The position numbers and the translations under genes were made by a program. The notes beneath the pieces were generated by a model. It saw only the letters and a list, made by a program, of their open reading frames with translations, was not told the DNA's origin and did not search any database. A stretch of 64,000 bases of DNA. Origin: Bacteriovoracia bacterium (GTDB lineage Bacteria > Bdellovibrionota > UBA1018 > JBFWNL01). Location: contig JBFWNL010000012.1 of assembly GCA_050251055.1 (NCBI GenBank), forward strand, positions 1 through 64,000. The letters are read 5' to 3'. This document shows, piece by piece, positions 7,475-42,708 of the stretch (position 1 is the first letter of the stretch; the number at the start of each line of letters is the position of its first letter).

Positions 7475-7514
7475 GCCCATACCCCTAGCACACTTGAAAT
7501 CCCGCGTCAGGCGC

Positions 7515-8873: not shown

Positions 8874-8975
8874 GCTGCCCTCTCGCTAATGCAGTGTGTT
8901 ACCAGCCCGTAACGGGACCGTCAACTATAGCGGGGACCCTAAGCAAAACTAAATATTTGATATAAATACTTGTTA

Positions 8976-12983: not shown

Positions 12984-13660
12984 GCGGCCGTCGCCTCCGT
13001 GCCAGCGAATTCACGCTTCAGGAGTTTCTGCAGGATATAAATGGCAATCCGACGCCGCACCTGGGGATTCACCCGCAGGAAGTACACGCCCACGCCCGTT
13101 TCCTCGTCTTCGCCCTTGCCGGAGGACAGGGCGGGGTTAATCCGCATCACGACGGAGGCCGCCGAAAAAGTACCGATGATCGGCGCGTTGCGAACCACGA
13201 TCTTAATCTCGTCGCCCTTGTTAAACTTGAAGCGGCGATCCGCCCGCACGTAAACGCCTTTCTCGCTGATGTCCACGGCGGCAGCCCGGCAAATTTTCTG
13301 GTCGTTATGAATAATGACTTCGGCCTCGAGCCTCACCCGCGGATACCGGCGGTAGTGATTCTCGCGCCCGTACTCGCCGGTGTCTTCGAAAGTTAGCTTG
13401 ATCTTCTGCCGCAGCCCCGTGCTGCCGGAGCTCTTCTTCTTAGGCAGTTTGGATTTCGGGTAACGCGTCATCGTCACCTGGAATTCCTTGAGGTCAGAGA
13501 TTCGGCGCCACTCTTGATCGGGGAAGTGCGTGCCCCAGATGAAACTGTCGACGCGCAGCTCTCCCTCGCGTAATTTCTTCGCGATCGCGTCTTGGCTGAA
13601 GGGCCCCAGGGCCTCTCCACCGTCCGGATCTGGCAGGAACCATTCCTGGTTCTCTTGCAT
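12980..13660 (-). CDS. GYF_2 domain + PilZ domain protein
   Basis: N-terminal 'WFL...LGPFS...LREGEL...FIW...EWRRISDL' (GYF_2). PilZ motifs RRYPR and DISEKG. RBS GGGAGGAG upstream of ATG 13660. Confidence 0.85.
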   Translation of the reverse strand: MQENQEWFLPDPDGGEALGPFSQDAIAKKLREGELRVDSFIWGTHFPDQEWRRISDLKEFQVTMTRYPKSKLPKKKSSGSTGLRQKIKLTFEDTGEYGRENHYRRYPRVRLEAEVIIHNDQKICRAAAVDISEKGVYVRADRRFKFNKGDEIKIVVRNAPIIGTFSAASVVMRINPALSSGKGEDEETGVGVYFLRVNPQVRRRIAIYILQKLLKREFAGTEATAA

Positions 13661-13682
13661 GCTCTCGTTTCTCCTCCCTATT

Positions 13683-13709
13683 TTTTCGGTAGTTCGACCC
13701 TGAAATTGA
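13683..13709 (-). promoter_or_regulatory. Putative sigma28 (FliA)-type promoter for the GYF-PilZ/TPR operon
   Basis: Minus strand reads TCAA-N15-ACCGAAAA, against the consensus TAAA-N15-GCCGATAA. Confidence 0.45.
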
Positions 13710-13768
13710 AAACAATTTTCCGCCGCTCGCGTCGGCGCCGTCAAATAAGTGACTCTTTCCCTAGCGAT

Positions 13769-13795
13769 TAAGAACTTTTTGCCGGGAACCGAAAC
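13769..13795 (+). promoter_or_regulatory. Putative sigma28 (FliA)-type promoter for the Ig-repeat/cglF/gltG/agl operon
   Basis: TAAG-N15-ACCGAAAC just upstream of RBS GGAGGAGG. Confidence 0.45.
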
Positions 13796-13813
13796 GGTTG
13801 GAGGAGGATTGGA

Positions 13814-15541
13814 ATGCAGCGCTTGCTCCTGGTATTGCTACTGGCGATTTCTCCCGGAATCCACCGGGTTTTGGCCGATGAAAACCCGTCCGCGGAGGCC
13901 GCATCGCGTGCCGCGCTTTTTTACGACGGCCGGAACGACCGCTATTTCACCAATCGGGAGACGCGCTTTTCGATTCGGGCCCTGGAAAGCCCCAAGAACG
14001 TCGAGCGCATCGATGTCAGCATTAATCAAGATTCCTTCCGGCCCTACGAAGGTAAACTCCAATTCGATAAGGAAGGCATTCATCACCTGCGCTTCCGCGC
14101 CAGCGACCCGGTACTGAACTGGAGCCCGGTGCAACATTTCCGGGTGTACGTCGATCTCACCGCCCCCGTTACCTTCCCCCAGTGGGAAGGCACGACTTTC
14201 CGCGCGGGCCAGGATCTTTTCGTAAGCCCCCAGGCGACCCTTAGCCTAGTCGCCCAAGACGGCCATTCGGGCGTCGCCAAGACCCGGCTTCGCCAAGGCG
14301 AGACCGGCATGGTCACGGCTCCCGCCAAAATATCGGCCGACAAGGCCGGTCCTCACGCCATCACCTTTTCCTCCATCGACCACGTAGGAAACGCGGAGGA
14401 CTGGAAAACCATCCAGTTCACTACCGACGCGGCGGCTCCCGAAACCCAGGCCGAAGTCCGTGGTTATTCTTACAAGACGAAGAGCCAGATTTTCGTGAAC
14501 AGCGGCGGATCGATCGCGCTTGCGGCGACCGACTCCGGATCGGGCGTGGCCAAGACGGAGTACCGGATCGGCGACGGCCCGGTGAGCACCTATCAGGAGC
14601 CCATCACGATCTCGATGAATAAAGTGGAGCTGAAGTTCCGCAGCGTAGATCAGGTCGGCAATGCCGAACCCTGGAAAACGATGACTGTCTATCAAGACTC
14701 GCTGGCCCCGACCGTAAGCGTAGAGAAAACCGGCAAACACGTGCTTCTCGGCGGAAAGCTCTATGCCCGGCCCGGCTTTACCGTGAAAGCCAGCGCACAA
14801 GATCAAGGCAGCGGCATCGATCAGTTCCTGGCCTCGACCGACGGCGTAAACTTCAAGCCGGTCTCCGAAGCCGCGACCCAGTTCCAGAATCCGGGCGAGT
14901 ATTTCCTGGTGTTTCGCGCGATCGACCACGTGGGCAACCTCGATGAATCCAACCCCATCCAAATCGTGATCGACGCCACGCCGCCCATCTCGCGTTTCAA
15001 GACGACGAACGCCCTAGTGGAGCGCGACGGCGTGCTCGTCTCGGGAATTCCGAACCAGCTCGAGATCCAAGCCGACGATGACGGCGTGGGGATCGAGCGC
15101 ATCGAAGTCGGCACCGACGGAAAATCTTTCTCCCCTTTCCGCGGCGAGCTGGACCTCGCCGAGTGGAAAGATTCGAGCCGTACCCTTTACTTTCGGGCGA
15201 TCGACCGTTTAGGCAACGTGGAGGCCGTGCAGAAAAGCCGTATCGAAGTGCGGGCCCAGGGTCCGCGCGTCGATCTCTTCGTCGAGTCCAAAGACCTTCC
15301 GGACGTGCCGCTCTCTACCCTGAAAAACAAGGGTGCGAGCGCCGTCGCTCATGAGGCGGCTGAAACCCCCGCTCCGGAGGGCGCGCCCGCCGCGGCTGCG
15401 GTCAGCCGGACGAACTCGGCTACTCCCCAGAAAAAGAAAGCTAACGATACTCCTCGGGCTCCCGCCTCCGGCGGAAAAGCCAAACCGGGCAAGGCCGAAA
15501 AGCATAAGGGCAAGAACAAATCCGGAGGCAAGAAGAAGTGA
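13814..15541 (+). CDS. Exported OmpL47-type / Ig-like repeat protein with basic C-terminal tail
   Basis: Signal peptide and five repeats ending F-R-(A/S)-x-D-x-(V/L)-G-N...D-x-x-(A/P)-P. Ala/Pro- then Lys-rich disordered tail. Confidence 0.75.
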   Translation: MQRLLLVLLLAISPGIHRVLADENPSAEAASRAALFYDGRNDRYFTNRETRFSIRALESPKNVERIDVSINQDSFRPYEGKLQFDKEGIHHLRFRASDPVLNWSPVQHFRVYVDLTAPVTFPQWEGTTFRAGQDLFVSPQATLSLVAQDGHSGVAKTRLRQGETGMVTAPAKISADKAGPHAITFSSIDHVGNAEDWKTIQFTTDAAAPETQAEVRGYSYKTKSQIFVNSGGSIALAATDSGSGVAKTEYRIGDGPVSTYQEPITISMNKVELKFRSVDQVGNAEPWKTMTVYQDSLAPTVSVEKTGKHVLLGGKLYARPGFTVKASAQDQGSGIDQFLASTDGVNFKPVSEAATQFQNPGEYFLVFRAIDHVGNLDESNPIQIVIDATPPISRFKTTNALVERDGVLVSGIPNQLEIQADDDGVGIERIEVGTDGKSFSPFRGELDLAEWKDSSRTLYFRAIDRLGNVEAVQKSRIEVRAQGPRVDLFVESKDLPDVPLSTLKNKGASAVAHEAAETPAPEGAPAAAAVSRTNSATPQKKKANDTPRAPASGGKAKPGKAEKHKGKNKSGGKKK

Positions 15542-15852
15542 TGCGCGTCTGGATTCTCGCACTTTCGATCTGCCTCGGCGGCGTCGCCGAAGCGAAGCCG
15601 ACCCGATCCAAGGCCCCGGCGAGGACCGTCGCGGCCGCCCATAGCGATCCCGGCAAGAAAGTGCGCTACCGGACGCACACGCAACTCGACTTTAGCGGCC
15701 AGGCCATCCAGGGGAAGATCCGCGCGCCCGAAGTATTCTATATCTTTCAACGGCGCCGCTCCGAAGGTCACCAGGTAGTGACCCCGCCTTCCGACTTTCA
15801 CTACCATAGCCCGGACATTCAAAAAGTCGTGCAGGAGGCCCTCGGCAAATGA
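15541..15852 (+). CDS. cglF: Adventurous gliding motility protein CglF/GltF-like
   Basis: Small exported protein with 'YRTHTQLDFSGQAIQGKIRAPEVFYI', matching the CglF pattern (T-x-IDF...I-x-G...P). Sits directly upstream of gltG. Confidence 0.7.
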   Translation: MRVWILALSICLGGVAEAKPTRSKAPARTVAAAHSDPGKKVRYRTHTQLDFSGQAIQGKIRAPEVFYIFQRRRSEGHQVVTPPSDFHYHSPDIQKVVQEALGK

Positions 15853-17585
15853 GATACGCCGGCGTCTTTCTCCGACATCCCGTGACGAAGCAGGAAAAGC
15901 TGCTGGGGGCGTTCACCGACGATGTCACCATCGGTAAGGGCGCGGCGGCCGACCTGGCCCTGAGGGATTTGCGCTGCAACGCCATCCACGCCATGATCGA
16001 GCGTGATCCCAAGACCGATCACTTTACCCTCGTGGACCTGGGCAGCCAGTTTGGGACATTTTTCAACGGCAAACGCGTCGAAGAAGCGGTGCTACCAGTG
16101 GGCAAGCCTTTCCAGATCGGCACGCACCAGCTGGTCCTGCGGGAAATATCGAACGACGTGGCCGAAACCGTCGTCGACCACAAAATCAAGACCGGACGGA
16201 CCACCGTCGAAACCCGCAGCGATTCGGCCGCGGAAAAAGACCTCCTGCAGGTGTCTCTTTACTGGGGCGAGCAGCTGCTGGACGTAAGAACCTTCACGCC
16301 CGGGTCGAACATCACCATCGGGCCGCACCAAGATGCGACCTTCAGCGTGACGCTGGCGAACCCGCGATTACTGGGGCGCGCCTACCCCCTGGCTAAGTAT
16401 CGCCGCGACAAACTCGCGCTGAACTTACCCGTGGAAGCCACCGGCGTGCTCTGGCAAGGCAACGAGCTCGTCGCCGTCGACACCCTTCGCCACCATGATC
16501 GCGCCAAAGAGTTCGGGGCGATCGCCGCCACGCTTAAACCGGGCGACCGCGCCGAAATCAACTTGGGCGAGCTCACCCTTTCCTTTCGTTTCGTCGCGCC
16601 CGCCGAGCTCCCGAAAGCAACTTTCGTCCCCGAGGTGGAAAAGAACGTCGCCATACTACTCGGGATTTTGGCGGGGCTATACACCGCATTCTTCTTTTGG
16701 ATGGGCACGACCGAAGTCAAGCCCGTGGTCGAGAGCGTGCAAGAGCTCCCAAAACACATGAAGCGCACCTTGTTTGACGCCGGCATAGAATCCGCGCTCA
16801 AAAAACAGCAAGCCGCCATCGGAGAGATGATCTCCAAGCTCGAAGGCGGCCGGGCCGGAGGCGAAGAGGGTCGCGCGCGCGCGGACCGTCGGCAAACCAA
16901 GAAACCGGAAACGAAGCGCGCCGCTAAGAATGCCAAAACGAAGAACAAAGCTTCCACGATGGTCAAAAATCTAGGCCGCGCGGATGAGGGCGCGGTCCTG
17001 GACCTCGACTCGGCTTTTTCCGCCAAAAAACAGCGGCGGGCCAACGACACCACCGCGTTTAGCGGCGCGCCGCAGGTTGGAAACACCGCCGCGGCCTTGG
17101 CGGGCGGTGACTTCGCGCGCGGGACCAAGGGTTTCGGATCCGGCGGGGGCGGCAAAAGCGTGGGCATCGGCGCCCTTAAGGGCTCAGGTACGGGTGGCGC
17201 CATGGGCGCTGGCGACTACGGTCTTTCCCCTTCGAAGGGCCACGAGATCAAAACGAGCGACACCGACGAGATCGTCATCCTCGGAGGCCTGGACCCAGAC
17301 ATCATCGCTAATCGCGTCCGCCAGTATCTGCCCCAAATCCAGCATTGTTACGAACAGCAGCTCGCCGTGAACCCAAAACTCAAAGGCAAGGTGACGGTCT
17401 CTTTCATCATCAAGGGCGATGGCGGAGTCATGAAGGCATCGGTCGCCGAGACCAGCTTGCACAGCCCCGCCACCGAGAGCTGCATGACGGCAAAAATTTT
17501 AGGTTGGAAGTTTCCGAAACCCCGCGGAGGCGGGACCGTAGGAGTGAAATACCCATTCTTGCTCATGTCCAATACGGGACAGTGA
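15849..17585 (+). CDS. gltG: GltG/PglI-like protein: FHA domain, TM, Gly-rich linker, TonB/AgmX C-terminal domain
   Basis: FHA-like 'LVDLGSQFGTFFNGKRV', a single TM, and C-terminus 'IQHCYEQQL...LKGKVTVSFII...WKFPKPRGGGTVGVKYPF'. Confidence 0.85.
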   Translation: MRYAGVFLRHPVTKQEKLLGAFTDDVTIGKGAAADLALRDLRCNAIHAMIERDPKTDHFTLVDLGSQFGTFFNGKRVEEAVLPVGKPFQIGTHQLVLREISNDVAETVVDHKIKTGRTTVETRSDSAAEKDLLQVSLYWGEQLLDVRTFTPGSNITIGPHQDATFSVTLANPRLLGRAYPLAKYRRDKLALNLPVEATGVLWQGNELVAVDTLRHHDRAKEFGAIAATLKPGDRAEINLGELTLSFRFVAPAELPKATFVPEVEKNVAILLGILAGLYTAFFFWMGTTEVKPVVESVQELPKHMKRTLFDAGIESALKKQQAAIGEMISKLEGGRAGGEEGRARADRRQTKKPETKRAAKNAKTKNKASTMVKNLGRADEGAVLDLDSAFSAKKQRRANDTTAFSGAPQVGNTAAALAGGDFARGTKGFGSGGGGKSVGIGALKGSGTGGAMGAGDYGLSPSKGHEIKTSDTDEIVILGGLDPDIIANRVRQYLPQIQHCYEQQLAVNPKLKGKVTVSFIIKGDGGVMKASVAETSLHSPATESCMTAKILGWKFPKPRGGGTVGVKYPFLLMSNTGQ

Positions 17586-17605
17586 GCGGGATTAAGGAGA
17601 GAGAG

Positions 17606-18607
17606 ATGGAAGGCGCAAACAAAGTCATCAGCAAGCCGATTCTGCCGACGGGATCCACCGGGGCTCCCCCACTCGGAGAAACGATCGCGACCACCCAGCA
17701 CGCCGAGGAGTTCAACTTCGCGGAGGTCCTAGGGGGAGCGTTCCAAGCGGGCGGGATTTTCATGTACCCCCTCGCCGCGCTCATGGTGATCGGGTCGATC
17801 GTGATCATCGAACGCCTATACATGATTCTCTTCGTCTACAAGGCCAATGCGGCGAGCCTCATGCAACGCGTGCAGCGCCTGGTGCTCGACAACAATATCG
17901 AAGAGGCCGTCAAGCTGTGCAACCGCAAGAAGAAGGCGGCCGTCTATCAGGTCTTCAAGGCCGCGCTCGTGAACGCGGATCGCCCGTTCGAGGAGATTCG
18001 CGAGCACGTGGAGGTCGCCAATATGGCGGTCATCCCCAAACTCCAGTCGCGCGTGCCGTACCTATTCACCATCGGCAACGTCGCCACCCTGCTAGGACTG
18101 CTCGGTACCGTCGTGGGCCTCGTCATGACTTTCAAGTTCGTCAACCACGACGTCGTGGAAGCCTCCGACAAGCAGAAGCTGCTCACGATCGGGATCTCGA
18201 CCGCCCTGAACTGTACCGCGTTCGGCCTCATCGTCGCCATCCCCTGTATGTTGGTATACGGCTTCTTGTTCAACAAGATCAACACGATCGTTGACGAGCT
18301 GGACCACTATTCTGGCAAACTACTCCTGCTCCTGCGCACGGGCGGCCAGTATTTCGACCACTTCAACTCCGAAAGCGCGGTGAGCACGCAGCAAACCCCG
18401 CAAAAAAAGGCGGCGAATGCCGAGAATCCGTTCCCGAACACGTCGGCCGCCACCACACCGACCGCGGCGACGACCCCGTCGGCTAACGGCGTAGTGCCTA
18501 GCCGGCCCGCCGAAGAAGCCCAGCCCGACGAGCGCACGCGTTTCATGGAACGCCCCACCGGAAACGGTGACGGCGAAAATGGCGACGGGAGCGAAGATGC
18601 AGCCTAA
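17606..18607 (+). CDS. aglR: MotA/TolQ/ExbB proton channel, AglR-like
   Basis: 'GGIFMYPL', 'ATLLGLLGTVVGL', 'GISTALNCTAFGLIVAIP'. Start at ATG 17606 after AAGGAG. Confidence 0.8.
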   Translation: MEGANKVISKPILPTGSTGAPPLGETIATTQHAEEFNFAEVLGGAFQAGGIFMYPLAALMVIGSIVIIERLYMILFVYKANAASLMQRVQRLVLDNNIEEAVKLCNRKKKAAVYQVFKAALVNADRPFEEIREHVEVANMAVIPKLQSRVPYLFTIGNVATLLGLLGTVVGLVMTFKFVNHDVVEASDKQKLLTIGISTALNCTAFGLIVAIPCMLVYGFLFNKINTIVDELDHYSGKLLLLLRTGGQYFDHFNSESAVSTQQTPQKKAANAENPFPNTSAATTPTAATTPSANGVVPSRPAEEAQPDERTRFMERPTGNGDGENGDGSEDAA

Positions 18608-19202
18608 GCGCAAACGCCGGCGACACGAGCTGCCGGCCGCCGAAATCAGCGTCGTCTCGCTCATGGACGTGCTGACCACGCTCTTGTTCTTCCTGCTGAT
18701 GATGAGCGGCAAGGACAATTTCTTCGTGGTGCCCGCGGCCTCGAATCCGCCCGGAAAGACGGTCGAGGACACGAAGCCGAAGTTCGCGTTGCAGGTGATC
18801 TTAAAGGATTCCCGTACCGCTTACGTTTGGCTGGGCCCCTACGGTGGCCTGCGCGTTCACGAAGAAGGCACGTTCACGGCCTGGGTATCTCAGCATTTCA
18901 AGGGAAATCCTGAAGACGGCTTCTATCGGAAAATCGAAGCGACGGGTGCCGAAGAGCTGAGATCCTCCATACAGGATACTCTCATTACGATTAAGCAAAG
19001 CTTTCCGGAGGAGAAAAACGCGGTAGCCGCCTTTTCGGACAAAGTCCCCTACCAAGAGGTCGTTGACATCGTAAACGCGGTACGGGAGCTCCCCAACGCC
19101 AGGGCGCTCGCCGTGAAACGGCCCGTAGGTGGCAAGACCGTGTCTACCGTACTCTTCCCACAGGTCGTGGTCTCGGAATGGAATGAGGGGGGAGCCTCGT
19201 GA
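18597..19202 (+). CDS. aglQ: ExbD/TolR family protein, AglQ-like
   Basis: TM with the conserved Asp (SLMDVLTTLLFFL), 'VPYQEVVDIVNAVR', terminal 'LFPQVV'. Confidence 0.7.
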   Translation: MQPKRKRRRHELPAAEISVVSLMDVLTTLLFFLLMMSGKDNFFVVPAASNPPGKTVEDTKPKFALQVILKDSRTAYVWLGPYGGLRVHEEGTFTAWVSQHFKGNPEDGFYRKIEATGAEELRSSIQDTLITIKQSFPEEKNAVAAFSDKVPYQEVVDIVNAVRELPNARALAVKRPVGGKTVSTVLFPQVVVSEWNEGGAS

Positions 19203-19699
19203 AGCACCGCCGCAAACGTCACATCGAAGGGGATCTGAACATCAACGCCCTCATGGACGTCTTGACCGTGCTTTTGTTTTTCTTGATCCAAAGCTACACC
19301 GTCAGCACGACGGCGATCACACCGCCGAAAGGCATGCGGCTTCCCGCGTCCACGAGTATGACCAAGATCGAGGAAAGCGTATCGGTTTCGCTCAGCGCAA
19401 CCGAGCTGCGAGCGAACAATCAGCTGCTGCTCAAGCTCCACCGCGGCCAGCTCTCTCCGATTGATTTAGGCGAGGATCAGCGCACGATCACCGTCTTAAA
19501 GAGCTTCCTAGAAAAAGAGTACCGAAAGAAGAACCAGATTTACGAAGGCGCCGGCGATCTTTCCTTCCTTCCGGCCGCGAGCGTGCTCGTGCAGGCCGAT
19601 AAGGACCTTCCTTTCGCGCTCGTTAAGCACGTACTCAACACGGTCGCCACCGTCGGCTACAAGGACTACCAATTCGTGGTCCAAAACGACAAAAAGTAA
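19199..19699 (+). CDS. aglS: ExbD/TolR family protein, AglS-like
   Basis: 'LNINALMDVLTVLLFFLI', 'LPAS', 'VQADKDLPFALVKHVLNT...GY'. Confidence 0.75.
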   Translation: MKHRRKRHIEGDLNINALMDVLTVLLFFLIQSYTVSTTAITPPKGMRLPASTSMTKIEESVSVSLSATELRANNQLLLKLHRGQLSPIDLGEDQRTITVLKSFLEKEYRKKNQIYEGAGDLSFLPAASVLVQADKDLPFALVKHVLNTVATVGYKDYQFVVQNDKK

Positions 19700-19843: not shown

Positions 19844-20025
19844 GACTTCTGAATGAGAGGGTTTTGTCCGTGAAGCTGACTTCAAAAATCACGCACGCGT
19901 TAGACAACGCACGAACGCGCGGCGACCAGCATCTAGCCACCCCGATTCTTCAGAATCGGCGTATGGAAGTTGCAACTCGCTATGATGTTGGTCCGCGGTA
20001 CGTACGTTTCGGGAGTAAGGCATTC

Positions 20026-21078
20026 ATGCAAAAGAGTTTGTTCCGTTCTCGGGGAAAAAAGATCCGATCTACTCACGCGTATGCGCACGCGTGCGCGCTG
20101 GCCGTGCTGGGACTGCTGGGCAGCGGGTGCTTGACGCCAGGACAAGACGCCATCAAGCGCGCGGCGAGCAATCCCCAGAGCGCGACCGTAGCGCCGGCGA
20201 TTCCCGAAGGCGCGAAGGCCGTCAAGATCATCTTCCGGCAGGCCTCGCCCACCGGAAGCTTCAACGCGCCGATCACGGGCGGCACGGTCAACGCGGTGGG
20301 ATCCGGCCTACCGGCGGTGCGTGTGTTCAACGCGAATGGTACCCTTCTCTCCGACGACTCCAACGCCACGACGTGGCCGAAGTGGTTAGGTCGCGTCGAG
20401 ATCGGCATCAGCGGCAACAACAACCTTGCCGCGACGAATCCCGACTGCGTGCGCTTCGCTTCCACGCTCGATGAAATCGCAGTTTGTGACTTCGACCAAA
20501 ACGCCGGCACGGCCGGCAAGCTCTGTGGCGCTTCCGCCGGTCTCCTGCGTGTCAGCGAAGTGAACTGCGTGGCGCCCGGCAGCAGCATTACCAACGGCAT
20601 CGGCGGCCCTTCCGATGGCGTTTACATTCGCGCCGAATTCAACCGCAACGCGAAGTATCTGGGCGAGCAGGAAAACATCTTGGCCGTGTTGGAATACTCC
20701 TCGTCGGTGCTCCATCCCGCGCCGTCCGATCCCACGAAGTGCTTCACGAACGGTGTATTCGACCCTACCAACCCGCTTTGCTCGGACATGAGCTGGCAAA
20801 TATTCATGAAACACACCGCCGCCGAAATCGTGCAGCCCTTCCTGCTGCTCGTGCCGCCGGCCTTCCATTCGGTCGACACCGCGAACAATCGCGCGGGCGC
20901 CGGGGTGGGCACCAAGCAATTTATCATTCCGCTCGCGTCCGACGCCGGACTGCAAGTCATGCAGATCAGCCGTATCCGGGCCATGGCTTCGACGGCCGAG
21001 CTGACCACGGTTTGTTCCGATAATTCCGCATTTTGCATGGGGATGGTTTTTCATTCGCTGACTTTTTTTAGAATATGA
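20026..21078 (+). CDS. Cys-rich lipoprotein of unknown function (LpA)
   Basis: Lipobox LLGSG-C and multiple Cys. Start chosen at ATG 20026. The stop overlaps the next start (ATGA). Confidence 0.7.
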   Translation: MQKSLFRSRGKKIRSTHAYAHACALAVLGLLGSGCLTPGQDAIKRAASNPQSATVAPAIPEGAKAVKIIFRQASPTGSFNAPITGGTVNAVGSGLPAVRVFNANGTLLSDDSNATTWPKWLGRVEIGISGNNNLAATNPDCVRFASTLDEIAVCDFDQNAGTAGKLCGASAGLLRVSEVNCVAPGSSITNGIGGPSDGVYIRAEFNRNAKYLGEQENILAVLEYSSSVLHPAPSDPTKCFTNGVFDPTNPLCSDMSWQIFMKHTAAEIVQPFLLLVPPAFHSVDTANNRAGAGVGTKQFIIPLASDAGLQVMQISRIRAMASTAELTTVCSDNSAFCMGMVFHSLTFFRI

Positions 21079-24000
21079 GATTTACGGTTAGGGCGGCCGC
21101 CGGGGCGGCCATTTTTTTCCTATCTGCTTGCGCCGGGGACGTGATGAACCGGGGCTCGCAGGCGAAGTCCAAGCAAGGCCTCCAGGCCGAGCTCGCCGAC
21201 TCGCTTACCGCGGTGCGCATCCGCCTGCACCAGTCCGACTTTTATTCCCTGACCGATCCGAATATCTACAGCTGCGCCGGCGACGCCAAAACCTTTTACG
21301 ATCCGTTGCGCCTAAACGACCGGCAGATGCCGCTGCCCTTCGAGGAAAGTCTTTCGCTCGCGGGCGAAACCCTTCGTCCATCTTTCATCAAGAACGTCAG
21401 CGTTGATCTCACCGACGCCAATGCGCCTATCTCCACTAACCGCGCCTACGCGTGCTCCTTTGGCAATGCCCAAGGGGTTCCGCCCAACAGCAACTGCGCG
21501 GGCTTTGACTACGGCGCGGTAACGGGGGCAAGCGCGAACCTGGGCGGCAGCATCGTGCTCCTAGGGGGGCTCCAAAGCCCCAACTACGGGAATCTTCCCG
21601 ACGGACCGGCGCCCACCCTCAGCTGCGGAGCCATGATCCCGCCCAACCAGATCAACGGCAACCCCAACCAGCCCGGCGTAAACACCTGCTCGATGGAAAT
21701 GTACGCGCTTGGCGTAGAAACGATGCCCGCCTCGATCGCCACCGATCCGCCCAACGGCCTAGCGCCGGGGTTGACCAGCGCAAACGAGCCCATCTCCACC
21801 TGGGTACGGCTCTCGGCGCCCGAAGAATACATGGGACCCGCTGGCGCACTGGGGTCCGCGGCGAGCTTCAACGCCGGCACCAAGCAGCTTCTACTCTATG
21901 GGGGCTCAGCCCCGCTTACCTACGCGGGCGCGGCCGGCGCGGGCGCCGACCACGGCGATACCTGGATTTATGATCTAGCCAACTTACGTTGGGAAAAGCA
22001 GTCCGGCCCGGTGACGATTCCGGCGGACATCCAAAACGCGCGCGACTGCTCGGCGGGTTCGTGCGTGGACGTCGACAAAGGGCTAACCGCGCGTTCCCTC
22101 TTCGGCTACGCCGCCGTCGCGGGTATCGCGCTGAGCAAGCTTGATCCCACCGGCCCGATCGAAGCGCCCGGATTCCCCTTGCCCGCCGCCAATTTCGACA
22201 CCACCGACCGCGTCGTGGTGGCCGGCGGTTTCCTGGGGGTGGATGGAAACGGACAGAGCATTTTTATTCGCTCGACTCGAAGGTGGAACCCCACGTTCGG
22301 TCCCGAATATATTGATTTCGGCGGTGATCCCGCGCGCGTGAACGACGACATCACCCAGGGAATCGACAGCCACTTCTCCCAAGTGATCTCGACGGTGCAT
22401 CCCACGCTCGGCGGCCTGCTTCCCCAGACGGTTGGCCAAGGCGGACAGCTTGCCAATTTCGCCACGGCATTCGTGCGCAATTACAACGCAAACGCGGGTT
22501 ACCCGCTTCTCTTCGGCGGATACGACGGGTCCGTGCCCTACACGGCGACGAAGCTGGCGACCGACCCCACCTGTGCGAACGGCGGAGCCGGCTGTATAAA
22601 TGATGGCAAAGCGATCTTCATGCGGCGGAATGGCGTGCTGGAGACGATGCTACACAACGTGGCCACGCTGGCGCTCTATCCGTTCCGGAATGATTTACGC
22701 ACCGGCACTCCACCGCAAGGCTGGAACTACGGGGACCGCGTGAAGCCGATCGCGTGGCGCGCGGAACCCCTTGATCCGATCCCGGTCACCGTGCCTCCGC
22801 TTCCCGATCGTGGCGGGCTGGATCGCGTCGCGGCGGTCGTGGGTGGGGTGGCTACCCCGGGCCTAAGCTTGGCGCAAAACGATGTCGTTTACTTCGGCGG
22901 CGTGAACTGCGCCTCTTACTTGATCCAAAGCACGAACTGCCCAGGAAGCGCCGTGGCGCCGATTTGGAATAACGCTAACTTCTACTGGCGCTTGGGCGGA
23001 GGCACCTATTTTGAAACCTATCCAAACCCGCCCGCCCTGTCGGGCGCGAACGTTCAGGGAATGGCGCCGCAGAACCATGCCGGGATGGCCGCCGCGCGCG
23101 GGCTGGATGCGGCCGGAAACCCCATCGTCGTTGCCTGGGGCGGTATCAACGGCGCCCTAGGATCGGCCACCGATCCGGCCGTCTACCTCCTTTATAATGC
23201 CGGACCGGATCTGAATGCCGGCATCATTCCGACTTGGACCGCGAAAACGCCGGCGAATCCGCGCCCCACTCCCGCCATTAATGCGCAGATCGTATTCAGC
23301 CACGTCACCAAGAAATTCTATCTCTTCGGCGGTTACGAAACTACGCCCGTGCAACGCAACAGTGCGGACACCTGGGAGCTCAGCGTGAACGGAAGCTGCG
23401 CCACGGGCGCCTGTACCTTCAGCTGGCGTAAGCTAAACGTACCGGGCGGTCTCACCTGCGGCGCCGGCTGCGTGATGGCGGGTCCCGGTCCGCTGGCCCG
23501 CCGCTCCCACCGCATGGTGGAAGTGAACTACAATAACTACGACTCTCGCCTGGAATATCGCGGTGGGACCGAAAATACCTGCACCGCCACGGGCGGGGCC
23601 TCGCCGCGTGGGCCGTGCTCTTTCGGCATCTTCATGGAAGGCGGTTCGGTCGATGGATTCTCGTCCATCGGCGATCGCTGGATGTTCGATCCTACCGCCA
23701 ACGGCGGGCGCGGACACTGGCAGCTCATGAACAGCATGCCGCCCCGGCACGCTTCGGCCACCGCGTCGATCGACTACTACCTGCCCGACCAAGACGAGGT
23801 GGCTCACCGTACCGTCATGTTCGGGGGAGAAACCGGACTGCATAGCCCCGGCCAGGTGGCGATGGGAAGCACCTTCGTGCCGCCTACGCTAGGCGACACT
23901 TTGATGTACAACCACACCACGGAATCCTGGACGCGCGTGCGCCTACTGGGGGAAGGCATCCAAGGTTACAACCAGCCCCGTGCGCTCAGCGACAATCGCA

Positions 24001-25574
24001 CTGAAGATCGCCGACGAGTCTCGTTCCGGGCCGACGCCGCGGACACCAACATGGTTTTGCTGGGTGAGCTCACGCCTCCCCCCTTGGCCGGACATACCAT
24101 GGTGACGCGTACCTTTCCGGGCCCGACCTCCGGCGGCGCCACGGCCGTGGCGCCTTTGCGCATTCCCGAAGTTTATCTCTTTGGTGGACGCAAGAAAGAC
24201 GGGACTTATCTGGGACTCGATCACGTCTATAAATTTTGCGCCGGGTCCACCGGCGAGGACTACGCCACCTCCTATACTACGCCAGAGATCACCTATGGCG
24301 ACGGTAGCTGCGACGCGTACGACGAAACCAAGAACCCAGGTTCGTTTAGCCCGGTTCCGGAAGCCGTCGGACGCTGGCTGCGTCGGCGGCCCTCTTCCAT
24401 TGCGGGCGTCCCGAGCTATCGCGCTTACTACTTCGATAGTATTTCCCAAAGCTATCAGGTAACCGGCGACCTTCCGCTGGCGGGCTTAGCGAGCTATCTG
24501 GGAGCGTCGACCTACGACTCCTCGCACGACCGAACGCTTCTCTTCGGGGGGCTGATGCCCGCGCCGGGACGCACCCACGTGACCGAAGCACGCTCGATCC
24601 TGAGCGCCGACGGAATCAACACGTATATTTTCGAGTACGTCGCGCCCACGCGCTCACTCACTGCGATCTCGGCCCGTATGGCCGACGCGAGCGTGACCGA
24701 TCCGAACGGCTACATCCGCCGGCTGCACGGACACTGGGAAGCGCTGGGACAATGCGCGGGCAGTCCCCAGCCCACCCCCCGTTACGGCCACCAAATGGGC
24801 TACGATCAGTTGCACAAACAAGTCGTCGTGATCGGCGGATACAACCTCGTGGGCAGCTCGCTTACGCAAGATTGGATCGACGACGGCGTACCCACGTCCA
24901 CCCAAGTTCCGGAGATCTGGACCGCTAAACGCGACGACTTGAACAAGTGCTACACATGGAAAAAGCTGCAGACTTTCGGCAATGTGCTCGGTGGCCAGGC
25001 CGCGCCGGTGCCCGTGGGCGGGCTCGCGCACCCGGCTTCGTTCTTTATTCAGGGCACGAGCTATACCACCGGATTTTATACGATGAACGATCAGGCCTGC
25101 ATCGGCGCCGGCCCGCAGGCTTCGGGTGATCCCGATGTGAACCGCCTGCTTGCAGGCGGGGTTTACATAGATATCGACCGGCAAAAGCTCGGCAAGGCGG
25201 AAAACCTCCTGCTGAACCTCACGTTTTACCCTTTCTCGGATCGCAACCAAGCGCCCAGCGGACGGCTCTACGACCCGGGCGAGTCGGCTTACTTCCGCGT
25301 TCATCTGCAGAGCACGGGGCTCGCTTCGGCATTCATTCAGCAGGTTTTCCAACCGCGCTATTTGAGCTTCACCGACGACGAGGTCTACCCCCGTACCGTG
25401 CAAACGCTCTCGGTGGTGGCGCCGCCGACGGGATCCATCCGCCAAGAACAGATCGTGCTGCCAATCTCGGCCGATGCATCTATCGACCGCATCCGCATCG
25501 AGCGCTACTCCGGTTCGGCGATCTTGATCGACGCTTCGGTCTACCGACTGGGACAAAAGGGAGGTGAAAAGTGA
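21075..25574 (+). CDS. Giant Kelch-repeat lipoprotein (LpB)
   Basis: Lipobox FLSA-C and repeated Kelch signatures (LLLYGG...DTWIYDLANLRW; FYLFGGY...DTWEL; MFGGE...DTLMYN...W; PRYGHQMGYD...VVIGG). Confidence 0.8.
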   Translation: MRFTVRAAAGAAIFFLSACAGDVMNRGSQAKSKQGLQAELADSLTAVRIRLHQSDFYSLTDPNIYSCAGDAKTFYDPLRLNDRQMPLPFEESLSLAGETLRPSFIKNVSVDLTDANAPISTNRAYACSFGNAQGVPPNSNCAGFDYGAVTGASANLGGSIVLLGGLQSPNYGNLPDGPAPTLSCGAMIPPNQINGNPNQPGVNTCSMEMYALGVETMPASIATDPPNGLAPGLTSANEPISTWVRLSAPEEYMGPAGALGSAASFNAGTKQLLLYGGSAPLTYAGAAGAGADHGDTWIYDLANLRWEKQSGPVTIPADIQNARDCSAGSCVDVDKGLTARSLFGYAAVAGIALSKLDPTGPIEAPGFPLPAANFDTTDRVVVAGGFLGVDGNGQSIFIRSTRRWNPTFGPEYIDFGGDPARVNDDITQGIDSHFSQVISTVHPTLGGLLPQTVGQGGQLANFATAFVRNYNANAGYPLLFGGYDGSVPYTATKLATDPTCANGGAGCINDGKAIFMRRNGVLETMLHNVATLALYPFRNDLRTGTPPQGWNYGDRVKPIAWRAEPLDPIPVTVPPLPDRGGLDRVAAVVGGVATPGLSLAQNDVVYFGGVNCASYLIQSTNCPGSAVAPIWNNANFYWRLGGGTYFETYPNPPALSGANVQGMAPQNHAGMAAARGLDAAGNPIVVAWGGINGALGSATDPAVYLLYNAGPDLNAGIIPTWTAKTPANPRPTPAINAQIVFSHVTKKFYLFGGYETTPVQRNSADTWELSVNGSCATGACTFSWRKLNVPGGLTCGAGCVMAGPGPLARRSHRMVEVNYNNYDSRLEYRGGTENTCTATGGASPRGPCSFGIFMEGGSVDGFSSIGDRWMFDPTANGGRGHWQLMNSMPPRHASATASIDYYLPDQDEVAHRTVMFGGETGLHSPGQVAMGSTFVPPTLGDTLMYNHTTESWTRVRLLGEGIQGYNQPRALSDNRTEDRRRVSFRADAADTNMVLLGELTPPPLAGHTMVTRTFPGPTSGGATAVAPLRIPEVYLFGGRKKDGTYLGLDHVYKFCAGSTGEDYATSYTTPEITYGDGSCDAYDETKNPGSFSPVPEAVGRWLRRRPSSIAGVPSYRAYYFDSISQSYQVTGDLPLAGLASYLGASTYDSSHDRTLLFGGLMPAPGRTHVTEARSILSADGINTYIFEYVAPTRSLTAISARMADASVTDPNGYIRRLHGHWEALGQCAGSPQPTPRYGHQMGYDQLHKQVVVIGGYNLVGSSLTQDWIDDGVPTSTQVPEIWTAKRDDLNKCYTWKKLQTFGNVLGGQAAPVPVGGLAHPASFFIQGTSYTTGFYTMNDQACIGAGPQASGDPDVNRLLAGGVYIDIDRQKLGKAENLLLNLTFYPFSDRNQAPSGRLYDPGESAYFRVHLQSTGLASAFIQQVFQPRYLSFTDDEVYPRTVQTLSVVAPPTGSIRQEQIVLPISADASIDRIRIERYSGSAILIDASVYRLGQKGGEK

Positions 25575-25753: not shown

Positions 25754-27718
25754 ATGCCGAACTCTCGTTTCGCGCCGAAAACCACGCTCTCGTCCGCGAT
25801 TTTCTTCGCGTGCATCGCTGCGCTCGGCGTGGGCGCCCCCGGCTGCACCAATAACCGCATCATCGGCAAGGTGAAGCTCAACGGTAACTACTCCAACAAT
25901 TTCTCGGATCCGGGAAATGAAGCCACGGGCCCCGTTTCCATCTCGCGCGTGCTGAAGTCCAACTTCAGCCCCAGCACGGAGCTGGATGTCGTAGGCATCG
26001 GTGACGGCGCCATGGGCATGCATTGCCTGGGCGGCAGCGGCGCTTTTCAGGGCGCCGGCGAAGGCGCGAGTTCCTGTGCTTGCCACTACGAATATCAAAA
26101 TCCTGCTACGGGCTTGACCGAAAGCGTGGACGTCCCCACGTCTTACTACGAAGCCAATCTCATTCGCTGCCCATACGACGTACTCACCACTGGCGTAAAT
26201 AACATTAAAGTACGCGTGCACCTCGCGAGCGGATCTTACTCAAACCCCATCACCTTCGCGTTCGAAGGCGTCGGTACGTCTCTTGATCTTAGTCTCGCTT
26301 CGAGCTACGGCGAAGTGAAGCGCTTCCAATGCCGTGATCATGTAACCATCGATTTCATGTGGCCGCAAAGCACGACCGGGGGGACCCCTTCGGCGGCTAG
26401 TGATGCCACCGGCGATAACGCGCTATACGACCCGTTTCAATCCGATACCACGCGTGTGAGCTACGCGCGTAACTACTACGCTATCGATAAAGGCTCGGCC
26501 ATCAAGGCGTTCGGACTTGCCGGCGCCACGCGCGATTATATCGGGGCGCACGACTGTTCCTACGATAGCGGCCAAAACCCGCAAGCGTGGGAAAGTCTCA
26601 ATATTTACTCGCGCGAGCCGGACTCGACGGGCAGCCGGCTCATCTTCCCGGCTTCCGGCGGTGCCTTCGATCGCTCTACTTTCCACCTCGCGCGCAAGAA
26701 GAGCGGTATCTTTAACGTGCCGGTCAATGGCTTCATCGCCCCGGGCACCGTCACGGCCTCGCCCGATGCCTTCGGCAACCAACCCGCTGGCTTTGAACCG
26801 CCGATCGGTTGGGGCGTGCGCCCGGGCGCCAATCAGTCTTGCCCCGCCGCCAACGTCGCCATCCCGGAAGGTTACCACTGGGTGAAAGTCTGGGCGTTTC
26901 GCGCGGGCCTTTACTCGCGCACGTACGTTCGCGGCTCACAATCGGTCAGCTCGACCTTCGGCATCTTTTGCAACCCGGGACTGTTTGATACGCCGCCGGC
27001 GCAACCGAACGGAGTGTTTCAGCCGTTTCCCGATTGCGCCAATCCGAACGGCCCTAACCCACAAACTCAAACCACCCAATTTCCGCTGACGGATACCTTC
27101 GGCGCGGGCAACCTGGCCGCCCGCGCGTTTTTGAACGGCGGCAAGCAAGCGTGCTTCCGTACCGTGGCGTATGACAATCAAGCGAGCGTGCGCGGCGGCG
27201 GCAACCTTGATTTCGCAAGCCTGCCAAACCCGCCAGTGCCCAATCCAAATCCGAACGGGATCACGGGGGGCGACTCGCTCTACCGTCTGGGATCGAACGT
27301 CAACTCAAACTTTGTCGACATGGCCTCGCTTCCGTGGAACTTCACCCAAAGCTTCCTCCAAACGGTTCCCGCCGCCGGCCCCGAGGCTATCCAGGCTCCC
27401 ATCGACGACATCAATAAGTTCATCTACGGAAACCTCGACGGCGGCGGCGCCGGCGTTTCCCGCTATGACTTCCTCTTCGTGACCACGCCCACCAACATCA
27501 CCGTCGAGATGATGGGGAACGGCGTAAACGGCGATCCGGACGCGCTCCCGTACGTCCCCTTCACCTTCAAGCGGCGGGAAGACTGCAGCGATCCGAATCC
27601 AACGAACTGCTATAATTTTGACGCCCGCAACATCGACTATGAGCTTTACCGCGGGGAAATCCCCAACGACGGAGGCCTGCAGAACACCTTCCCGCTCTGC
27701 GCGCTGCAGCCGGATTAA
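25754..27718 (+). CDS. Cys-rich lipoprotein of unknown function (LpC)
   Basis: Signal ending GAPG-C, CxC motif, many Cys, Asn/Pro-rich loops. Start at ATG 25754. Confidence 0.7.
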   Translation: MPNSRFAPKTTLSSAIFFACIAALGVGAPGCTNNRIIGKVKLNGNYSNNFSDPGNEATGPVSISRVLKSNFSPSTELDVVGIGDGAMGMHCLGGSGAFQGAGEGASSCACHYEYQNPATGLTESVDVPTSYYEANLIRCPYDVLTTGVNNIKVRVHLASGSYSNPITFAFEGVGTSLDLSLASSYGEVKRFQCRDHVTIDFMWPQSTTGGTPSAASDATGDNALYDPFQSDTTRVSYARNYYAIDKGSAIKAFGLAGATRDYIGAHDCSYDSGQNPQAWESLNIYSREPDSTGSRLIFPASGGAFDRSTFHLARKKSGIFNVPVNGFIAPGTVTASPDAFGNQPAGFEPPIGWGVRPGANQSCPAANVAIPEGYHWVKVWAFRAGLYSRTYVRGSQSVSSTFGIFCNPGLFDTPPAQPNGVFQPFPDCANPNGPNPQTQTTQFPLTDTFGAGNLAARAFLNGGKQACFRTVAYDNQASVRGGGNLDFASLPNPPVPNPNPNGITGGDSLYRLGSNVNSNFVDMASLPWNFTQSFLQTVPAAGPEAIQAPIDDINKFIYGNLDGGGAGVSRYDFLFVTTPTNITVEMMGNGVNGDPDALPYVPFTFKRREDCSDPNPTNCYNFDARNIDYELYRGEIPNDGGLQNTFPLCALQPD

Positions 27719-27739: not shown

Positions 27740-30196
27740 ATGTTCGCTTTGAGAACCATCACCGCTCGCATTTCCAGGACCGCCACCCCGGCCGTCGTCG
27801 CGGTATGCCTCGCCGTCGGCTTGGCGGGATGCTCAAACGCGGGCTTCAAGTACGGCAACAAGGCGAAGAGCACGAATGGCCAGAATCTCAACACCACGAA
27901 CGAAGTGAAGCTCACGATTTCGAACGTGACCGTCACGGCGCCCCAAGGCGCGCAAAACTACCAAGTTTCCATCTTCATGAGCTCGCAGAGCTCCGCGCCG
28001 CCCCTCACTGACTTTTGTAATCTTGCGGGAGGCGCCAATGCGTGCGTCTGCCGGGCGGCTTGGGTGGAGACCAACACGCAAGGAGGGGCCGTGGCGGCGA
28101 TCAACCGCGTGGTCGATATGCCGCTGACGCAAGTGCAGGGATTCTTCGCCTCCTGTAACGCGTTTCCTGCTTATGCCAACGAAGTCGCCGACGGTACGAC
28201 GATCCAATTCTCCGTCGTCCCGTACGTGGGCAATCTTTCTGGCATCAAGATGACTCCGTTTGCCTACCTCAAAGGCGAGGCCTCGCAGGTACCCAGCGGC
28301 GGCGGGTTCTTCGACGACCAGGGCCGCCCCTTCAACAATATCCACCGCTATTCTTGTTACGATTCTTTCTACCGCGGGCGCAAGATCACGAGCAAAGTGC
28401 GCCGCCTCACCCATCCGAACGACGAAGGCACTTATAAAGACGGCGCCTCTTCCACTATGTTCTGTAAGGATGGCGACAACCAATCCGGCGAGCAGGAGTG
28501 CCTAGGCCATTGGAGCCCGAAGGTCCCCTCTTCCCAAAGCTACTATTACAATCTTTATATCAAGAGCGCGCAGTTGGGCGGCGTCAACCCGGAAAACGAA
28601 TCGTTCGTTTGCCCGCGCGTGCAGGAACCGCTCGTTTCGGGCGGTGGCACCGTGGGCTGGCCGCTCGATTCCACCTTCGCGCTCTCCCAGGTGAAGAGTT
28701 CGGACTTCTCGGTGCCAGTGGAAGCCGCCTCCGTGCTCGGTAACTCCGATCCCGGATCCAACAGCTCGACGCATGAGAGCTGCAACACCGATCCCAACGC
28801 CCAACCGCCCGCGGGCGGCGACATGAATAATTCCATCGCTTTCAAGTGCCTGGGCTGGGCGAAGAAGCCCAATCCCAATGGGACCTGCCCCACCTTCAAG
28901 GACAGCACCGGCGTCACGCGCCAAACCTATCGCTTGCGGCGTTATTTCGCCGTCTATCCGTTCCGCTTCAAGACCGGCGGCCACTTCAAGCGTCGCCAGG
29001 CTCCGTCGGTGGACACGATTTATGTGCTCGATCGCCCGGTCAACTCGGGCGACCCGCTCAATCCCTATACGATGGCCGGACCGAAGCCCTGCCCGTTTGC
29101 CTACTTTGATCAGACCGGTCTCTTCGGCAACAACGGCAGCACCATGGCGCAGGCCGGTGTATACGGTTTCAGCCAAAACAACCGCCCCTCGTATCGGGGT
29201 ACGAACTTCTCGGGTTGGGATGGCAAAAACGTCGACGGCACGAAGTTTCCGAACCTGGACCGTAAGCGCCCGGCGCCCGAAAGCGTCTTTTCCTGCGCGG
29301 CTACGCTGCCGATCATCGCCTACGACGTAAACGGAAACCCGCTTGCGCTCACCTTCGGCACGAGCCACAGCACGAACGATCAGGTGATCGAAACCGGTGG
29401 TAGCGACATCGCCATGAGCGATGTATTCATCCGCGGCGTAAAGCCCTGGTCACCGCACTACGAGGAAGACCTTAGCTTCGAGGGCTGCGCGGCCGAATCC
29501 AACCCTTTCCGCGACGCCCCTTTGCACTTCGCCAAGGATTCAAGCGGCAACGTTTCGTGGTGCGCGGAAGCCTATCCGACGCAGAACTCATCGCCCAAGA
29601 TCATCGATCGCCGCATGGGAGCGCTCACCGGCGACGTTTCACCCAGCCAGGTGAAGAACTTCACCTCGCACGTGGTGAAAAATTCCGATAGCCCGGCGTG
29701 TTCGGCGACAATTCCGCCCGACCTGGAATTTCCTCCGGCTTACCCTGCATCTTCGTCTCCACCGAACGGAACCACCCTCGGCTCTATCCCGGGTTACCCC
29801 GTCGGCAACGTAACGAATCCTTGTGGAGCGGCTAACCCGAACACCTGCGGCGTGGCCCGGCACCCCTCATGGGTGCGTGCGGACGAAGGCTTAGGCTTCC
29901 CCGCCACCGGCGCCAACCGCACCTGCGACCGCACGGTGCTCGATCCGGGCGCGAACCGCACGAAATTCTATCCGCTCCTGGCGGAACCGCACGACGTCGA
30001 GCAGGCGCTCGTCACCGACAAGAGTTACAACTGCGTGGTCACCTACGATAATAACCACGGTAAACAAGGCACGACTACGCCTTCCACCGGTTGCTGCTCG
30101 CCCACGCGAGTTTTCCTCAACACCGGCGGCGTCGTTCAGCCAACCGATCGCGCGCACCTCGAGCCCAATCGGGCTTGCCTAGTGCCGAACTATTAA
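27740..30196 (+). CDS. Cys-rich lipoprotein of unknown function (LpD), paralog of LpC
   Basis: Lipobox LAG-C, dense Cys, and ordered motifs shared with LpC. Confidence 0.75.
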   Translation: MFALRTITARISRTATPAVVAVCLAVGLAGCSNAGFKYGNKAKSTNGQNLNTTNEVKLTISNVTVTAPQGAQNYQVSIFMSSQSSAPPLTDFCNLAGGANACVCRAAWVETNTQGGAVAAINRVVDMPLTQVQGFFASCNAFPAYANEVADGTTIQFSVVPYVGNLSGIKMTPFAYLKGEASQVPSGGGFFDDQGRPFNNIHRYSCYDSFYRGRKITSKVRRLTHPNDEGTYKDGASSTMFCKDGDNQSGEQECLGHWSPKVPSSQSYYYNLYIKSAQLGGVNPENESFVCPRVQEPLVSGGGTVGWPLDSTFALSQVKSSDFSVPVEAASVLGNSDPGSNSSTHESCNTDPNAQPPAGGDMNNSIAFKCLGWAKKPNPNGTCPTFKDSTGVTRQTYRLRRYFAVYPFRFKTGGHFKRRQAPSVDTIYVLDRPVNSGDPLNPYTMAGPKPCPFAYFDQTGLFGNNGSTMAQAGVYGFSQNNRPSYRGTNFSGWDGKNVDGTKFPNLDRKRPAPESVFSCAATLPIIAYDVNGNPLALTFGTSHSTNDQVIETGGSDIAMSDVFIRGVKPWSPHYEEDLSFEGCAAESNPFRDAPLHFAKDSSGNVSWCAEAYPTQNSSPKIIDRRMGALTGDVSPSQVKNFTSHVVKNSDSPACSATIPPDLEFPPAYPASSSPPNGTTLGSIPGYPVGNVTNPCGAANPNTCGVARHPSWVRADEGLGFPATGANRTCDRTVLDPGANRTKFYPLLAEPHDVEQALVTDKSYNCVVTYDNNHGKQGTTTPSTGCCSPTRVFLNTGGVVQPTDRAHLEPNRACLVPNY

Positions 30197-42684: not shown

Positions 42685-42708
42685 GTCTTCCTCCGTATCC
42701 TTCCGCCG

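Follow-up and report, generated by a model that had tools for sequence, protein, structure and literature searches.

Insert-bearing and insert-less orthologues point to a Kelch-repeat block nested in the predicted jelly-roll domain of a putative Bdellovibrionota envelope lipoprotein

How can a 1,499-residue lipoprotein that consists largely of Kelch repeats resemble, at its two ends, the two halves of a 350-residue neighbor? The question is raised by two adjacent genes, here called LpA and LpB, in a 64,000-nucleotide stretch of Bacteriovoracia bacterium DNA (NCBI GenBank assembly GCA_050251055.1, contig JBFWNL010000012.1, positions 1 to 64,000 of the forward strand), hereafter the window. An initial annotation, made from the sequence alone, had described LpB as the domain of LpA split in two by a Kelch insertion of about 1,200 amino acids (aa). 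We consider it very likely that LpB is a paralogue of LpA and that its jelly roll is interrupted by a Kelch block of ~1,180 aa at the hairpin that joins strand 5 to strand 6. The features concerned are the following.

20026-21078, plus strand: LpA, a 350-aa putative lipoprotein with a signal peptide followed by Cys35
20209-21075, plus strand: LpA residues 62-350, predicted uninterrupted jelly-roll beta-sandwich (model, PDB fold matches)
20458-20541, plus strand: LpA residues 145-172, predicted loop between strands 5 and 6, equivalent to the LpB insertion site (strand lists of the models, hhalign)
21075-25574, plus strand: LpB, a 1499-aa putative lipoprotein with lipobox FLSAC and Cys19
21198-21509, plus strand: LpB residues 42-145, N half of the split jelly roll, predicted strands 1-5 (hhalign, co-fold)
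21510-25049, plus strand: LpB residues 146-1325, Kelch-repeat insert of 1,180 aa (gap in insert-less forms, Pfam)
25050-25571, plus strand: LpB residues 1326-1499, C half of the split jelly roll, predicted strands 6-13 (BLASTP, hhalign, co-fold)

The placement of both genes in the initial annotation agrees with the list of open reading frames (ORFs) and with the starts of homologues. The ORF enclosing LpA extends from 19864 to 21078, and the start was assigned to its Met55 (20026) because the homologues and an identical 350-aa entry, P0003, begin there. The start of LpB overlaps the stop of LpA by 4 nt. Searches returned 75 homologues of LpA and 86 full-family homologues of LpB, whose source names assign the window to Bdellovibrionota. 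No Pfam and no NCBIfam family matched LpA, and the Pfam and NCBIfam matches of LpB are Kelch models only.

The strongest evidence for the nested architecture comes from natural orthologues of LpB that have no insert. When the window proteins were compared by tblastn with 24 related genome loci, five of these (L009, L011, L013, L024 and L025) carried, between LpA and the downstream gene LpC, a gene in which sequence matching LpB 43-149 continues, in the same frame and on adjoining DNA, with sequence matching LpB 1321-1495. The open frames in these five loci are 296-350 aa long and each has its own signal peptide. A Kelch-bearing LpB is present in 17 of the 24 loci; L010 and L016 could not be judged. 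Protein collections supplied three further insert-less proteins, P0203, P0207 and the divergent P0336, and all these relatives keep the host domain intact. In the genomes of the five loci, whose completeness is unstated, the LpB profile matched that gene alone, first with profile positions up to ~160 and then, on adjoining DNA, from ~1240 onwards. The N half is missing from 28 of 31 shorter proteins that contain the C half; many of these 28 are fragment-like and from short contigs, and only P0203, P0207 and P0212 are genuine short forms.

The boundaries of the insert can be read from an alignment of the short forms with 61 full-length LpBs. The forms of L024 and L025 show a single gap of 2,201 columns between LpB 145 and 1326, with CATFD before and TEATYDTGFY after the junction. 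P0207 likewise has a single gap, between LpB 146 and 1328, and the other four short forms are ragged near the junction. From this gap position the insert was defined as LpB 146-1325. Outside it, the L024 form is identical to LpB at 53 of 103 positions in the N half and at 83 of 170 in the C half.

The comparison with LpA itself confirmed LpB 42-145 and 1326-1499 as collinear remote homologues of the two LpA halves, solidly for the C half and weakly for the N half taken alone. BLASTP of LpA against LpB aligned the C half only (27.7 bits, E 0.002, 35/137 identities), and the matched segment, LpB 1362-1482, corresponds to the C-half pairing drawn by hand in the initial annotation. An LpA-family hidden Markov model (HMM), built from 74 of the 75 homologues after exclusion of one 248-aa fragment, also detected just the C half in the LpB sequence, with 5.4 bits; when every one of the window's 554 six-frame ORFs was searched, LpB obtained an E-value of 0.063 and a spurious ORF one of 0.059. 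The N-half pairing (AVKIIFRQ with AVRIRLHQ, WPKWLGRVEIGISG with RPSFIKNVSVDLTD) was recovered neither by BLASTP nor by the LpA-family HMM against the LpB sequence. It did emerge from profile-profile alignment, which paired the very segments quoted in that annotation.

For the profile-profile comparison, an LpB profile of 1499 columns was made from 82 of 87 family rows, leaving out five N-terminally cut homologues of at most 1200 aa (P0144, P0148, P0156, P0158 and P0161). Using hhalign, LpA 166-321 was aligned to LpB 1327-1482 (93-95%, E 2.5e-7 to 6.5e-8) and LpA 20-147 to LpB 4-147 (79%, E 1.7e-5, signal peptide included). The two ends of LpB are the sole above-noise matches in the 1499 columns and occur in the order of LpA; the third match had an E-value of 0.46. 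Combined into one continuous profile, the eight natural insert-less forms aligned with the LpA family over 268 columns at 98.4% (E 6.5e-15), or at 97.7% (E 1.6e-12) once signal peptides had been removed. Aligned separately, the N halves scored 25.4 (E 7.7e-4) compared with a mean of 11.1 and a maximum of 15.7 for 40 column shuffles, and the C halves scored 70.4 (E 1.2e-10) compared with a maximum of 19.8. Cross pairings reached 17.6 for N against C and 13.2 for C against N, so that each half outscores all 40 shuffles as well as the cross pairings.

Structure prediction was applied to LpA and to the L024 short form, the latter folded with the LpB homologues as alignment. The LpA model had a predicted local distance difference test (pLDDT) of 90.8 and a predicted template modeling score (pTM) of 0.82, and its range 62-350 matched 8wc1_A with Z 9.7 (root-mean-square deviation 3.0, 137/151 residues). 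Further fold matches of LpA were MAM domains, Eph ligand-binding domains (LBDs), reelin and gingipain adhesin domains. The short-form model (pLDDT 89.7, pTM 0.82) matched 4l0p_A (Z 8.3) and 8wc1_A (Z 8.3) over its range 64-350, with 136/151 residues. Both models contain 13 strands in identical order, and 34 PDB entries are common to the 50 listed for each. Single-domain PDB chains align with each model from strand 1 through strand 13, and the shared core is thus predicted to be one domain and not two. The models thus support a single jelly-roll beta-sandwich of the type found in carbohydrate-binding modules (CBMs), MAM and Eph LBDs as the shared unit, and with Z 9.7 for LpA and Z 8.3 for the short form they favor the beta-sandwich scaffold that had been suggested for the pair. 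Strand 5, with the motif C-A-x-F, lies at LpA 142-144 and at 167-169 of the short form, and strand 6 at 173-177 and 179-182, respectively. The intervening loop measures 9 aa in the short form, 28 aa in LpA and 1,180 aa in LpB; within the LpA loop (145-172) the residue pairing is not identical between two hhalign alignments.

The initial annotation had proposed predicted packing of the LpB termini into one domain as a check. LpB 20-200 and LpB 1300-1499, co-folded as two chains, scored 0.85 compared with 0.00 for the best of three controls; of 157 solved complexes 116 attain this mark, as do 2 of 215 mismatched pairs. Contact agreement between runs was at least 52% and the pLDDT of the partners at least 68. 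The interface comprised residues 42-147 and 1331-1493, and its tightest contacts were antiparallel, joining 104-111 to 1363-1368 and 45-47 to 1488-1491. These contacts map to strands 4/7 and to strands 1/13, the first and the last, of the short form. The predicted ends of LpB would therefore pack strand on strand into one domain, 1 with 13 and 4 with 7. The LpA profile had no PDB sequence match at E-values up to 1 and no related complex is solved; given that no relative has a solved structure, the co-fold result is not the recall of a known complex.

Several of these results weigh against a nested core. The link between LpA and LpB is non-significant by sequence comparison and by HMM against sequence. 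The N half is weak when taken by itself (25-28% probability, E 6e-4 to 8e-4), and without the signal peptide its alignment to the LpB profile falls to 28% with E 6.3e-4. The value of 79% is inflated, since signal peptides alone give hhalign E-values of 2e-4 to 9e-4, as seen when LpA is aligned with LpC and LpD, to which it is unrelated. The structural evidence consists of predictions throughout; the co-fold used an alignment that we built ourselves, which leaves its calibration only roughly valid, and Z-scores of 8-10 lie in a range that the fold-matching tool labels common. One may suppose that only the C-terminal ~170 aa are common to LpA, that the N-half likeness reflects chance plus the signal peptide, and that the two ends of LpB are separate domains. 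Detection of the C half alone by BLASTP and the LpA HMM, the 25-28% probability of the N halves and the comparable E-values of signal peptides from unrelated lipoproteins are all in line with this. On the other side, the N-half score of 25.4 exceeds every shuffle (maximum 15.7) and the cross pairings, and the LpA profile also matches the N part (9-104) of P0336. The predictions argue in the same direction, since the co-fold places the N-half strands within the C-half sheets (0.85 versus 0.00) and the insert-less forms adopt a single-domain fold that runs through all strands, 1 to 13. We retain the nested jelly roll as the preferred architecture of LpB.

The inserted block is recognizable as Kelch repeats. 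PF24681 matched LpB residues 720-960 with 52.6 bits (cut-off 50) and Kelch_4 matched with 31 bits (cut-off 21.6), while PF24681, PF13415, PF24981, PF07646 and PF01344 were found among the LpB homologues. The Pfam signal is clear from about residue 600 onwards and weak earlier (E 0.015); the N part of the insert, however, aligns to the blades of the C part with an hhalign-type probability of 88% and an E-value of 2.8e-6. At least 12 conserved GG blade motifs occur in the insert across the LpB family, and the sole PDB sequence match of the LpB profile is the Kelch region of muskelin (E 4.8e-6). The block has enough blades for two propellers and probably forms more than one. The Kelch block placed between the two halves by the initial annotation is borne out by the Pfam matches, at a length of 1,180 aa according to the gap, and its further suggestion that propellers are displayed from an internal loop fits the predicted position of the block in the strand 5/6 hairpin.

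The predicted core belongs to the same fold class as CBMs (8wc1, 8x8h, 4bj0), MAM (2c9a, 2v5y), the Eph LBD (4l0p) and gingipain adhesin domains (4itc, 3m1h). At the level of sequence, it is unrelated to the CBM, MAM and Eph domains in Pfam, NCBIfam and the PDB at E-values up to 1, and with ~290 aa and long cysteine-rich loops it is larger than these domains of 130-180 aa. No jelly-roll PDB match, among the matches listed, has a domain inserted in the strand 5/6 hairpin. Galactose oxidase combines a jelly-roll/discoidin-type domain and a Kelch propeller in tandem. The two domains of muskelin are likewise arranged in tandem, whereas the Kelch block of LpB lies inside the jelly roll. Muskelin (PDB 8ttq) is built from the same two blocks as LpB, a jelly-roll/discoidin-type domain and Kelch repeats. 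As in nested domains in general, the insert of LpB is located at a surface hairpin of the host and has ends that lie close together. A literature search on Bdellovibrio Kelch proteins, gliding and nested jelly-roll/propeller insertions found nothing on the LpA/LpB family.

To place LpA and LpB among their relatives, the LpA profile was searched over 1.84 billion representatives. It returned 146 proteins, all of at most 430 aa except for one repeat protein of 2874 aa. P0336 was matched with E 1.5e-6 in three collinear stretches, among them its N part (9-104), and is of the LpB type according to HMMs of the two LpB ends (E 1.4e-14 and 9.3e-39). The search also revealed a third family of jelly-roll lipoproteins of ~260-325 aa (P0330, P0331, P0335 and P0337) with the motifs TPCAYFD and IDR-KGG. 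Its members are hit by the LpA profile (E 1.2e-9 to 1.0e-5) as well as by the HMM of the LpB C half, and this third family thereby bridges LpA and LpB into one superfamily of three. The 2874-aa protein, P0339, has nine repeats with weak matches to LpA profile positions 40-103 (whole-protein E 1.7e-5); these may be a repeat derived from the first strands or compositional noise.

The LpA family was present in 36 of 301 sampled Bdellovibrionota genomes, and all 36 belong to the order of the window. LpA, LpB and the third family make up an uncharacterized, order-restricted superfamily of putative cysteine-rich envelope lipoproteins, for which no relative turned up in Pfam, NCBIfam or the PDB. Two LpA copies were observed in some genomes (G065, G251, G260; L003), those of L003 lying in tandem at 3544-4401 and 4864-5898. 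The closest LpA-bearing genomes are those of the loci L004, L005, L008, L012 and L019.

How often the insert was gained or lost was addressed with trees. An exploratory FastTree analysis placed the short forms at three positions, and a quick IQ-TREE analysis needed three insert changes, two of them forced by starred branches. In the approximately unbiased (AU) test, however, a tree uniting the seven short forms was better by 34.7 log-likelihood units (p-AU 0.895), and for this reason several independent losses are not established. A quick tree rooted with LpA and using 30 of the 61 Kelch-bearing rows nested the seven short forms within the Kelch-bearing LpBs and left P0336 outside, with a weak backbone and a long-branch warning. 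The adjacency of the paralogues LpA and LpB suggests a tandem duplication followed by insertion into one copy.

What might such a pair do in the cell envelope? LpA and LpB are followed by LpC and LpD, and the four genes together form a conserved unit. Downstream sequence of at least 2 kb is available for 16 loci, and in 14 of them LpB is succeeded by LpC and LpD, the exceptions being L008 and L022. The further genes that bear on function in the window are listed here.

25754-27718, plus strand: LpC, third putative lipoprotein of the cassette, assigned to Met 25754 in an ORF that opens at 25571; no Pfam or NCBIfam match
27740-30196, plus strand: LpD, fourth putative lipoprotein of the cassette, lipobox LAGC; no Pfam or NCBIfam match
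8976-12983, minus strand: TPR protein of 1335 aa
12980-13744, minus strand: protein with PilZ and GYF domains
13814-15541: protein with five OmpL47-type beta-barrel domains
15849-17585: GltG-like FHA protein with an AgmX/PglI C-terminal domain
17345-18607: ExbB/MotA-family protein
18567-19202 and 19199-19699: two ExbD genes

LpC and LpD have an N-terminal region of ~190 aa in common (hhalign 96.4%, E 1.1e-9, signal peptides included). Both were considered as carriers of a jelly roll or of Kelch repeats and were rejected, as hhalign gave matches at the level of the signal peptide only. Their ESM Atlas models were poor (pLDDT 0.25 for LpC and 0.31 for LpD) and yielded no usable neighbor. Scans for promoters and terminators in the 327-nt gap before LpA and in the region after LpD detected nothing above shuffled sequence. 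In one locus (L016:12071-17605), LpA is encoded on one strand and LpD, LpC and the LpB C half on the other, an arrangement suggestive of an inversion or of a join made during assembly. Elsewhere in the window (41152-44250, minus strand), two adjoining pentapeptide-repeat proteins of ~510 aa were observed, one of them with a weak ThuA-like C-terminal match.

The membrane position of the products can be approached through their lipoboxes, which were read from the sequence by eye. Those of LpB (FLSAC) and LpD (LAGC) are canonical; the signal peptide of LpA ends in LLGSGC and its family has the consensus L-x-G-C. In Escherichia coli, a lipoprotein lacking Asp at position +2 is anchored in the outer membrane. 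Neither LpA nor LpB has Asp at +2, and by the E. coli rule both would be anchored there. LpA and LpB would then be cysteine-rich envelope lipoproteins with the jelly roll as their constant core. By analogy with CBM, MAM and Eph ligand-binding domains, this core would most likely serve as a binding or packing module, with the Kelch block as an optional extra interaction platform held away from it, and LpA, LpB, LpC and LpD may act jointly as one envelope module. We put this functional reading forward tentatively, with confidence that stays well short of even. Three observations count against it: the lipoboxes of LpA (GSGC) and LpC (GAPGC) are atypical, so that lipoprotein status is itself a reading of the sequence; no family match indicates a function for the jelly roll of LpA or LpB; and the neighborhood of the cassette varies between genomes. 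We commit ourselves to a cysteine-rich envelope lipoprotein core of the binding-module type with an optional Kelch platform and to nothing further.

The neighborhood leads to the alternative that survives best. Upstream of the cassette, the region 8976-19699 looks like an Agl/Glt-type set, and CglB, GltK and GltC of the Myxococcus Agl-Glt machinery are likewise envelope lipoproteins. The passages on Bdellovibrio in Luciano et al. 2011 (PMC3169522) describe sets for the Agl/Glt "core complex" in this organism and state that GltH, I, J and K are absent from it, so that it must use parts of its own. LpA to LpD, usually together with the membrane protein U450 (~280-520 aa, without a Pfam family except for one weak RDD match), could be the partner, in the envelope, of a stator-type motor driven by protons, namely MotAB in most genomes and the AglRQS/GltG-like set in the window, with the propellers forming part of a motility structure in the periplasm or at the outer membrane. 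Upstream sequence of at least 2 kb is available for 20 loci; U450, a conserved protein, lies upstream of LpA in 15 of these, and motA-motB is found divergently oriented beside U450-LpA in 12; in L012 the U450 trio occupies 8410-9870, 7365-8141 and 6582-7361. In the window, moreover, the cassette follows ExbB, two ExbD genes and the GltG-like FHA protein. Against a motor partner stands the absence of ExbB, ExbD or a GltG-like FHA gene beside the cassette in all 24 other loci (0/24), AglRQS/GltG-like neighbors being confined to the window. The window's own genome carries U450 and motAB on another contig (C1; L028:8403-9848, 10121-10891 and 10901-11698) without the cassette, and the genes beyond motAB are housekeeping genes and not a FliG-like rotor cluster. 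Gene order common to close kin is weak evidence of function, and no protein from LpA to LpD matches a Glt, Agl or flagellar family in Pfam or NCBIfam. On balance we regard a motor partner as unlikely.

A bolder version of this idea, to which we assign a slightly smaller chance still, is that LpA to LpD and U450 constitute a hitherto undescribed module of the envelope, specific to one order of Bdellovibrionota and working together with proton motors of the stator type. The cassette would stand beside motAB in most genomes and would have moved beside an Agl/Glt-like gliding set here; the jelly-roll pair would be the anchored core and the Kelch block of LpB an outward-facing contact surface.

The initial annotation had also offered, beside a scaffold, a polymerization domain in a shaft-and-tip arrangement, in which the core would form the shaft and the propellers its tip. 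The genes of the two paralogous cores adjoin each other, and stacking is possible for beta-sandwiches. Yet the top fold matches belong to globular binding modules (CBMs, MAM, Eph LBD and gingipain adhesin domains) and not to fiber shafts, LpA and LpB both carry lipoprotein anchors, and no repeat or coiled-coil shaft sequence was seen. We found no pointer to a polymerization domain or a shaft-and-tip fiber, no homo-oligomer prediction having been run, and consider such a fiber very improbable. Least probable of all the alternatives is that the two ends of LpB are separate domains, as weighed above. A binding or packing core with an optional Kelch platform is the functional reading we prefer, at the tentative level given before.

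Domain insertion as such is common. According to a 2026 survey (PMC13114784), insertions are found in 20% of multidomain proteins; its main text contains no occurrence of propeller, Kelch or jelly roll. LpB departs from the usual nested domains in that the insert is multi-blade and exceeds its host about fourfold in size, in that a continuous paralogue is encoded next door, and in that orthologues with and without the insert occupy the same gene slot. A single jelly-roll hairpin in this superfamily would accordingly tolerate 9, 28 or 1,180 residues, which would be useful for studies of nested-domain folding and for the choice of insertion sites in beta-sandwich scaffolds. Should the module indeed work with a motor, lineages that carry the insert and lineages that lack it would provide a natural experiment on what the propellers contribute.

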